Shown: in pieces, positions 12,543 to 13,583 of the stretch
Numbering within the stretch: position 1 is the first letter of the stretch
Layout: each line of letters begins with the position of its first letter
Source: an uncultured bacterium
GTDB taxonomy: Bacteria; Cyanobacteriota; Vampirovibrionia; Gastranaerophilales; Gastranaerophilaceae
Length of the DNA: 64,000 nucleotides
NCBI GenBank assembly: GCA_949298985.1
Contig: CASFYV010000013.1
Span: 96,229-160,228, forward strand
Direction: 5' to 3'
The notes under the pieces: model-generated
What the model saw: only the letters and a program-made list of their open reading frames with translations
Told to the model about the DNA's origin: nothing
Database searches by the model: none
Made by a program: the position numbers and the translations under genes

Positions 12543-13583
12543 TTATATACTTTCTTCAATATATTGTGCAACAATCCCCGCTACTCTTAACGGTAATTCT
12601 GAATACTCGCCATCATAAGCTTGTGCGATAAATCTTTTTACTAAAGGTCTTTCATTTTTTATAATCTTCTCGATTTTTTCTCGAGGCGTTGTTCTATATA
12701 TTCTTAATAAATCACCTAAAACATTCTCTTTCGTTAATTTTCGTTTTACAGGCAGATAATCTTTCATCTCTTTGAGGCAATTTGTTACTAAATCGCCATC
12801 AATATGTGACTCTAAATCTGCCATATTCATATAATTAGAAATTGCTAACGAATCATTTGAATCAAATTTATTTAATATTGTTGTAACTTTATCTTGTGAA
12901 AGAATTTTTAAAACAAGTGCTAAAGACATTAATTTCATTTGTTTATTACTTATACCTTTAGGCATTTCAGTAAGAGCTTTTTCTTGTTTTCTTTTCTTTT
13001 TCTCCTCTTCTCTACGTTTTTCATCAGCTTCTAAATTTCTTTCAGCTTGTTCTGCCGCCTCTTGTTTTAACCTTTGTTGCTCTGCTTGAGCTTGTTTTGC
13101 CATTGCATCAATATTGGATTGGCTCTCTGCTCTATTCTTTATTTCTTCGTCGATAATTCCTTTTTTCTGTAATTCTTCAATACTTGTATTATAAACTTTT
13201 ATAACATGATGTTCTACAGCTTGAAGTAATTGATCTTGAGGAATATTTCTAATTACTGCTTGTTTAGCAATTTCAAAAATAGTAAATGCGATTTTTTGCA
13301 TTATACTATCCCAATATTGAGGAAGTATTCCTGAATGAATCAAATCTATGGATTTATGGAAAGACCATTCTGCGATTATTTGAGTTATAAAAACAGCTTG
13401 ATCTGCATTAAGATTTAATTGTTCGTCATTATATAAAGCTTCTCCGGCTAAAAGTGTAAAATTCCCAAGTGTTTTTACTATATATTCTTTTTCAAAATCT
13501 TTTAATTCTTTTGGAACAAGCTCTTTTGCCTGTTCACTCATTGAAGCTGCAAAACCTTTATAATCAAATCCTTCAATAGGCAT
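12543..13583 (-). CDS. fliG: Fusion of a novel N-terminal domain and coiled coil to a truncated FliG-like region
   Basis: Lies between fliF and fliH; aa ~213-290 resemble FliG_N (KQMKLMSLALVLKILSQDKVTTILNKF); IIKNERPLV resembles the FliG_M EHPQ motif; ends before any FliG_C. Confidence 0.6.
   Translation of the reverse strand: MPIEGFDYKGFAASMSEQAKELVPKELKDFEKEYIVKTLGNFTLLAGEALYNDEQLNLNADQAVFITQIIAEWSFHKSIDLIHSGILPQYWDSIMQKIAFTIFEIAKQAVIRNIPQDQLLQAVEHHVIKVYNTSIEELQKKGIIDEEIKNRAESQSNIDAMAKQAQAEQQRLKQEAAEQAERNLEADEKRREEEKKKRKQEKALTEMPKGISNKQMKLMSLALVLKILSQDKVTTILNKFDSNDSLAISNYMNMADLESHIDGDLVTNCLKEMKDYLPVKRKLTKENVLGDLLRIYRTTPREKIEKIIKNERPLVKRFIAQAYDGEYSELPLRVAGIVAQYIEESI

Follow-up and report, generated by a model that had tools for sequence, protein, structure and literature searches.

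What does a relative of the flagellar rotor protein FliG do when its torque-bearing part is missing and an unrelated domain has been added at the other end? This question is raised by a gene in a 64,000-nucleotide stretch of DNA from an uncultured bacterium of the Gastranaerophilaceae (GCA_949298985.1, contig CASFYV010000013.1, positions 96,229–160,228 of the forward strand; G+C content about 29%), here called the window. So far, to our knowledge, FliG has been regarded as a rotor protein whose three domains do not vary. Judged by its sequence, the product of this gene, here termed X, retains from FliG only the region for docking on the FliF C terminus, namely FliG_N and, carrying an EHPQ-like E-R motif, the two leading helices of FliG_M; in place of the switch- and stator-binding parts it has a helical domain at the N terminus that is restricted to Melainabacteria. 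On balance, and with modest confidence, we favour the view that X arose as a paralogue of FliG_N origin, is anchored on the membrane–supramembrane (MS) ring and offers its new domain to the export apparatus. Its role is probably in protein export, not in rotation.

Architecture of X and its homology to FliG

A 20-sequence cross-clade alignment and an AlphaFold model (mean predicted local distance difference test score, pLDDT, of 77) divide X into three parts, an N-domain, a linker and a C-domain, which lie as follows (aa, amino acids).

12543–13583, minus strand: X, 346 aa with an ATG start, from the open reading frame (ORF) and its translation
13089–13583, minus strand: N-domain, aa 1–165; five long helices, pLDDT about 88
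12948–13088, minus strand: linker, aa 166–212; ER/K/Q/A-rich, predicted as a single long helix, pLDDT 41–59
12669–12947, minus strand: FliG_N-like part of the C-domain, aa 213–305; from FliG profile comparison, Pfam FliG_N matches in relatives and Foldseek
12546–12668, minus strand: FliG middle-domain stub, aa 306–346; two helices, followed by the stop codon
12642–12653, minus strand: 'ERPL', with E311 and R312, aligned on EHPQ; the E and the R are nearly invariant

The C-domain (aa 213–346) is built of short helices and, when modelled alone with 46 diverse sequences, reached a pLDDT of 89.8; the helices of the stub are residues 109–119 and 128–141 in the numbering of the domain model. A profile of the 46 C-domain sequences was aligned by hhalign with a profile of ten FliG sequences (that of E. 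coli and those of nine diverse fliG genes on plasmids or chromids). Residues 222–328 of X fell on residues 11–142 of E. coli FliG over 105 columns (E = 4e-5, probability 70%), and 'IIKNERPLVKRFI' of X was aligned on 'LIRDEHPQIIATIL' of FliG. The score of 36.4 compares with a mean of 12.5 (standard deviation 2.1, maximum 19.4) for 150 column-shuffled FliG profiles and with 20.7 for the reversed profile. Pfam families matched among the same 46 C-domains were MgtE_N (30), FliG_M (17), FliG_N (16; best 2.5e-7) and FliG_C (4), and no unrelated family was matched by more than five of them. In full-length relatives the FliG_N match covers profile positions 7–90 of 104; in one of the relatives (P0318) FliG_N exceeds its gathering score, at 28.2 bits, and the precomputed collection annotation of that protein includes a weak FliG_N assignment. 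With the C-domain model, Foldseek placed FliG or C-ring chains in all of its first seven ranks, among them 5wuj_B from a FliG_N:FliF_C complex. The C-domain again matched FliG best (P = 0.019) in a comparison, of little power, with single flagellar proteins, namely E. coli FliE, FliF, FliG, FliH, FliI, FliJ, FliK, FliL, FliM, FliN, FliO, FliS, FliT, FliD, FliZ and FliA together with FliF, FliH and FlhA of the window. A family profile search of PDB sequences did not bring up FliG; it returned low-complexity nucleoporin matches to the linker and nothing else at E ≤ 10.

The original prediction from the bare sequence had described the last 135 or so residues as FliG_N-like, and the hhalign alignment, its shuffle and reversal controls and the FliG_N matches in relatives bear this out. 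On sequence grounds, we regard the homology of the C-terminal 134 or so residues of X to FliG_N and the start of FliG_M as confirmed, with the FliG_N domain located at the C terminus of X.

The alignment stops at residue 142 of the 331 of FliG and X itself about 18 residues later, near FliG residue 160, so that the second half of FliG_M, the M–C linker and all of FliG_C are absent. FliG_C has no Pfam match in X, as had been predicted, and in place of a complete FliG_M with its EHPQR motif X has the EHPQ position and about two helices. FliM binds the EHPQR motif of FliG_M, and a charged torque helix on FliG_C contacts MotA; X itself cannot transmit torque. A 'NERP' segment had been proposed as EHPQ-like. 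Its position holds in the profile alignment; across the X family, however, it is the E and the R that are nearly invariant there, and not E-H-P-Q.

Mean identity to the window sequence is highest in the N-domain (74%), lower in the C-domain (62%) and lowest in the linker (30%). The charged coiled coil foreseen in front of the FliG-like part corresponds to the charged linker at aa 166–212 in the window clade; in other clades the linker is Q/P/A-rich or almost absent, its length and composition depending on the clade. Conserved polar residues of the N-domain are Q18, Q68, E72, W73, H76, K77, D80, E104, E124 and N157, its motifs include EW(S/T)FHK, QKIAFTIFE and QSNID, and many of its residues are invariant between clades with less than 40% overall identity.

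Homologues of X number 2380 at 90% clustering. When one genome of each species was scanned, X turned up in 78 species-level genomes, at identities from 97% down to 38%, and carriers with a taxon label are mostly Gastranaerophilales, Melainabacteria, Vampirovibrio or 'Cyanobacteria bacterium'. In every sampled clade X is an intact single ORF, at identities down to 28%, and the sole name given to the family in any source is 'hypothetical protein'. We found no description of a FliG_N-only chimera or of the N-domain in the literature searched. The architecture of X is solid; the mechanism that we infer from it is set out further below.

Gene neighbourhood and the FliF tail

As predicted, X stands in the position of fliG, between fliF and fliH. 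In the window it forms part of a run of five minus-strand genes with short gaps, fliE–fliF–X–fliH–flhA, assigned with Pfam and NCBIfam, and an AGGA-type ribosome-binding site lies a few bases 5′ of its start.

15390–15728, minus strand: fliE, the first gene of the operon; Pfam FliE 1.2e-17, TIGR00205
13670–15337, minus strand: fliF (MS ring); Pfam YscJ_FliF and YscJ_FliF_C
13673–13708, minus strand: FliF tail, last 12 aa EAGERIRSWIES; a C-terminal motif of the FliG_N-binding type
11767–12534, minus strand: fliH; Pfam FliH 4e-24; begins 8 bases past the stop codon of X
9650–11740, minus strand: flhA, a full-length export-gate protein; FHIPEP 3e-216, TIGR01398

We compared 160 loci and based the counts on those with enough flanking sequence. 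The most constant neighbour is fliH, which comes immediately after X in 124 of 127 loci. Directly upstream, fliF is found in 61 of 124 loci that span the deepest splits of the family (28–100% identity), and deep relatives show the order flgF–flgG–flgB–flgC–SLT–fliE–fliF–X–fliH–flhA. Where fliE–fliF has moved away, X and fliH stay together. This is the case in one large clade of about 80–88% identity, mainly from human-gut contigs, in which fliE–fliF lies elsewhere; in 63 loci (L003–L040 and L104–L137), biotin and methyltransferase genes precede X–fliH–flhA and no fliE–fliF is seen.

In the FliF proteins whose genes precede X, the C terminus reads '...GE(R/K)I(R/K)SWIE' or, in the most distant clade, '...NLRKWIDS', and the FliF tails of E. 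coli, Bacillus, Ralstonia and Aquicella share the pattern (I/L)(R/K)xW(I/L/V). From the structures 5tdy and 5wuj, we take the C-terminal peptide of FliF to be what FliG_N binds in other bacteria. Given the conserved motif, this peptide seems to be maintained in the lineages that encode X.

No FliG_C, FliM/FliN or MotA/MotB is encoded in the 64-kb window, where the motor genes are those of the operon and a flagellin gene is present at 58847–60691. Canonical FliG, FliM and FliN were likewise missing from the Melainabacterial loci searched (about 2.2 Mb in all), which cover ±10 kb around X and thus do not imply absence from whole genomes; the search returned a single SpoA-type protein. This protein of 402 aa (L169, 1120–2328, minus strand) has two FliMN_C (SpoA) stretches and an N-terminal half without a Pfam match, is SctQ-like or FliY-like, and is encoded upstream of fliO–fliP and divergently from an X that is 48% identical to that of the window.

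The N-domain recurs outside X

The 46 N-domain proteins share no Pfam family. The N-domain has no match among PDB sequences, hhalign gave no match with the single flagellar proteins, and Foldseek with the whole protein returned designed helical bundles at best. The original prediction of an unrelated helical domain in front of the FliG-like part is upheld, for the domain is all-helical and has no relative in Pfam, NCBIfam, the PDB or the FliG profile. A permuted FliG and an internal duplication were rejected because the N-domain profile matches neither FliG nor the C-domain.

An exhaustive profile search yielded 458 representatives at 50% clustering, and the architectures of the best 150 of them were mapped locally. 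Among these 150, 59 combine the N-domain with the C-domain as X does and 34 join it to the cytoplasmic part of FlhA, with 0–4 membrane helices in between; others have tandem N-domains, an N-domain followed by a membrane anchor, or an N-domain standing alone, and a single protein (P0389) unites the N-domain, FlhA_C and a FliI-type ATPase. In eight of the proteins (P0278, P0290, P0293, P0301, P0303, P0315, P0247 and P0389) the N-domain is accompanied by FHIPEP profile positions ~260–656, a part that X lacks. The FlhA_C fusions are separate genes on Gastranaerophilales-like contigs, away from the flagellar operon. In the paralogues of loci L080–L083 and L099–L101 and in P0247, P0278, P0290, P0315 and P0389, the N-domain takes the place of the FlhA membrane domain, wholly or partly, before FlhA_C, and in L082 a stand-alone N-domain gene lies just upstream of the FlhA_C fusion, with a resolvase nearby. 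The domain, which had been called novel and put at about 155 aa, is indeed new to the databases, but it is not unique to X, since FlhA_C paralogues and membrane anchors carry it too. As far as these fusions indicate, it is a recurring Melainabacterial module whose common theme is tethering on the cytoplasmic side, to the membrane or the export gate.

Published flagellar inventories

Complete flagellar gene sets have been described in only about a quarter of Gastranaerophilales, the rest keeping a subset thought to be secretory (Soo et al. 2014; 2026 preprint). In the table of Soo et al. (2014), four genome columns, presumably those of reduced Gastranaerophilales, list FlgB/C/F/G, FlhA/B and FliE/I/J/P/R, most of them in every column, and contain no FliG, FliM, FliN, MotAB, FlgE or FliC. 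Wherever the table gives both FliE and FlhA (three of the four columns), their gene identifiers differ by 4. Three unannotated genes therefore lie between them, as in the window, and FliF, X and FliH were overlooked. The negative entries in these columns are accordingly soft, FliF and FliH having been missed by the same table, and the gene counts for the 'partial flagella' of reduced Gastranaerophilales are underestimates. The same study includes a FliM tree for Melainabacteria and hence implies switch proteins in some members.

A gene at the position of X is also present in the inventory of Di Rienzi et al. (2013). There, gene G0022 of ACD20 lies between fliF (K02409) and fliH (K02411) and belongs to a 'No hit' ortholog group common to MEL.A1, MEL.B1, MEL.B2 and ACD20, three of which are reported to have everything for a flagellum, including the M, S, P and L rings. 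In MEL.B1 the G0022 ortholog is beside fliH–flhA and far from fliE–fliF, an arrangement that matches the large human-gut clade of X loci. The same inventory holds a second FlhA ortholog group common to all four genomes, plausibly the paralogue in which the N-domain is joined to FlhA_C. The KEGG numbers of fliG, fliM, fliN, motA, motB and fliC did not occur in the portions of the supplement searched.

X had been put forward as the strongest sign, within the sequence itself, of a machine that is unable to rotate. In that form the claim is not supported, given that the gene at its position is common to four genomes of which three are reported by Di Rienzi et al. with complete flagellar sets. A gene shared with flagellated relatives, together with the arrangement in MEL.B1, points to a paralogue able to coexist with a motor and not to the torque-less FliG of a dead motor.

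A proposed role in export and its alternatives

We propose that the C-domain clamps the conserved FliF tail (...IRSWIE) and that the variable spacer would hang the N-domain under the MS ring, beside the export gate, where it could serve as a docking or oligomerization module for the export machinery. Candidate partners of the N-domain would be FliH–FliI, the FlhA cytoplasmic ring or the paralogues that bear an N-domain, and substrates such as flagellins with GLUG repeats. The emphasis on export follows from three observations: fliH and flhA are the constant companions of X, X is intact in lineages reported without a motor, hook or filament, and the N-domain occurs on copies of FlhA_C. As a bolder and rather doubtful extension, the N-domain might be a homotypic or export-gate tether, and X and the FlhA_C paralogues might together build a new cytoplasmic sorting platform. 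This would be a Melainabacterial coupling of the MS ring to export that arose independently of the injectisome and persisted after the loss of motility, perhaps secreting large GLUG/M26-like 'flagellins' into the gut.

Several points weigh against this proposal. By itself X has no Pfam or NCBIfam match at E ≤ 1, so that the case relies on family profiles, and every E-value in the Foldseek search with the C-domain model exceeds 0.1, none being significant singly. The P of the E-R-(P) motif is not conserved, which makes its equivalence with EHPQ positional and not functional. With no recognizable relative of the N-domain, its role is guessed from fusions and neighbours. The public runs that hold the exact stretch are DNA runs from bird, chicken and other gut metagenomes; no RNA run is listed among them. 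Should flagellated relatives have a canonical FliG beside X, the two would compete for the FliF tails, or the FliG_N-like domain of X might bind something else.

Alternatively, X could be an accessory regulator or assembly factor working beside a full-length FliG encoded elsewhere, in a flagellum that still rotates; it might then cap some of the FliF tails, time the assembly of the C-ring or act as a brake or clutch. We consider this unlikely, while recognizing how much it would accommodate: the 'No hit' gene that four genomes have between fliF and fliH, three of them reported with a complete flagellum by Di Rienzi et al.; the switch proteins implied for some Melainabacteria by the FliM tree of Soo et al.; the protein with two FliN-type SpoA stretches beside X in L169; and the flagellin gene in the window. 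A pure motor regulator should, however, have gone with the motor, and X is kept intact and conserved where the published inventories list no FliG, FliM, FliN or MotAB. It is linked to fliH–flhA and not to switch genes, and the loci around it (about 2.2 Mb, ±10 kb each) revealed no canonical FliG. The position of X in the ancestral arrangement and the reduced gene sets reported for most Gastranaerophilales would also suit a remnant of the only fliG left after decay of the motor, with a captured foreign domain and a non-rotating machine in all lineages that carry X. This we judge improbable: the X gene occurs in relatives that Di Rienzi et al. report as fully flagellated, M, S, P and L rings included, and its homologues are spread over the entire family as sampled, at identities as low as 28%, so the fusion predates the reported losses. 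X is best read as old within Melainabacteria and not as the decayed remnant of an only fliG.

MgtE_N and FliG domains are known to be related, and MgtE_N is the most frequently matched Pfam family, found in 30 of the 46 C-domains. That the C-domain is a sensing domain of the MgtE_N type, without a flagellar role and only incidentally placed in the operon, nevertheless seems very improbable to us. The MgtE_N matches span about 30 residues of the shared helix-pair repeat, whereas FliG_N is matched over positions 7–90 of 104 and reaches its gathering score; the FliG profile alignment is colinear over 105 columns including the EHPQ position; the fliF/fliH neighbourhood is conserved; and X has no CBS, transporter or membrane domain and so does not show the architecture of MgtE. 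A non-functional relic is hardly credible. No source gives X a functional name and transcript data were not found, but there are thousands of intact full-length copies, with many N-domain residues invariant between clades that are less than 40% identical.

Relation to known systems

X is homologous in its C-terminal 134 residues to residues ~11–160 of FliG (E. coli b1939; structures 3hjl, 8umd, 5tdy and 5wuj), its gene sits between fliF and fliH in the ancestral arrangement, and the FliF tail motif is conserved. By contrast with FliG, X lacks the second half of FliG_M, the M–C linker and FliG_C, adds an unrelated 165-aa domain and a spacer at its N terminus, and keeps the E and R but not the H, P and Q of the EHPQ position. 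Borrelia sets a precedent in that its cells have two members of the FliG family, FliG1 and FliG2, and just one of them acts as rotor protein of the motor; the spirochaete paralogues are full-length N–M–C proteins, whereas X is a truncated chimera. The MgtE N-terminal domain (PF03448) belongs to the same helix-pair repeat superfamily and has weak matches in many X members, but it occurs in another context with other partners, and the likeness is confined to the ~30-residue repeat.

With SctK and other sorting-platform adaptors of injectisomes, X would share a function only, that of an all-helical adaptor proposed to connect an inner-membrane ring to cytoplasmic export components of a type III machine that does not rotate; the PDB profile search (E ≤ 10) gave no sequence relation, and SctK docks on SctD and is not known to dock on the FliF/SctJ tail. 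Reduced export machines, such as the basal bodies of Buchnera, the chlamydial orphans FliF, FliI and FlhA, and, as has been proposed for most of that order, those of Gastranaerophilales, have genes for the export gate, the MS ring and the rod but an incomplete motility set. In Buchnera, FliG, FliM and FliN are present in normal form, and neither a FliG_N-only chimera nor the N-domain has been described for these machines in the literature searched.

X amounts to a natural dissection of FliG, in which the ring-docking module was kept, the torque module lost and a new domain added, in a lineage that is widespread in the guts of people, birds and ruminants. The origin of non-rotating secretion machines from the flagellum is known mainly through the injectisome. 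If X links the MS ring to export, it would provide a second, independent example of the evolution of a sorting platform and a pointer to the purpose of the 'partial flagella' of Gastranaerophilales. Thousands of 'hypothetical' database entries could be named, and the flagellar inventories of Gastranaerophilales genomes, from which FliF, X and FliH are missing, should be revised.

Flagellins and other features of the window

The flagellin of the window (58847–60691, plus strand, 614 aa) has a central insert of GLUG repeats between flagellin regions that are normal at both the N and the C terminus. Such GLUG-flagellins are widespread in Gastranaerophilales, and we regard them as candidate secreted substrates. 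The closest relatives of the window protein, among the matches listed, are only 47–64% identical to it, which means a far quicker divergence than that of X. Directly behind flhA, the human-gut clade has a GLUG/M26-like flagellin with a weak Peptidase_M26_N match; in the window the same place, between flhA and lysA, is occupied by an 80-aa ORF without a family match (9155–9397, minus strand). One locus (L102 of GCA_037067905.1, 15882–19790) encodes a second, giant flagellin of 1302 aa, in which a large insert separates Flagellin_N from Flagellin_C; its gene is about 4 kb away from that of a GLUG-flagellin, amid housekeeping genes and not within a flagellar operon.

A promoter scan of the AT-rich window found sites no more common than in shuffled sequence. 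Terminator-like sites numbered nine, against a mean of 2.6 in shuffles, and we drew nothing from them. Divergent from fliE is a CHASE2–GGDEF diguanylate cyclase (16056–17873, plus strand), assigned by eye from the translation, and a PilZ-domain protein (48377–49000, plus strand; Pfam E = 2e-11) is encoded 32 kb from it; the two may hint at control by cyclic di-GMP. Two small paralogous proteins (22478–23332 and 23339–23794, plus strand) are near-identical in their first 30 residues (MLNIN.MN.YSKSN..FKSQKDYSKIYKEM) and are followed by a protein of 1286 aa (23809–27669, plus strand). Pfam scans of the first of the small proteins and of the 1286-aa protein gave no match. A transfer-messenger RNA gene (30697–31092, minus strand) encodes the tag peptide ANKVVSMADYRAQRLAA. 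AvrB_AvrC, a family of plant-pathogen type III effectors and unexpected for a gut Melainabacterium, is matched (Pfam E = 1.4e-11) by an ORF of 274 aa at 39968–40792 on the minus strand.

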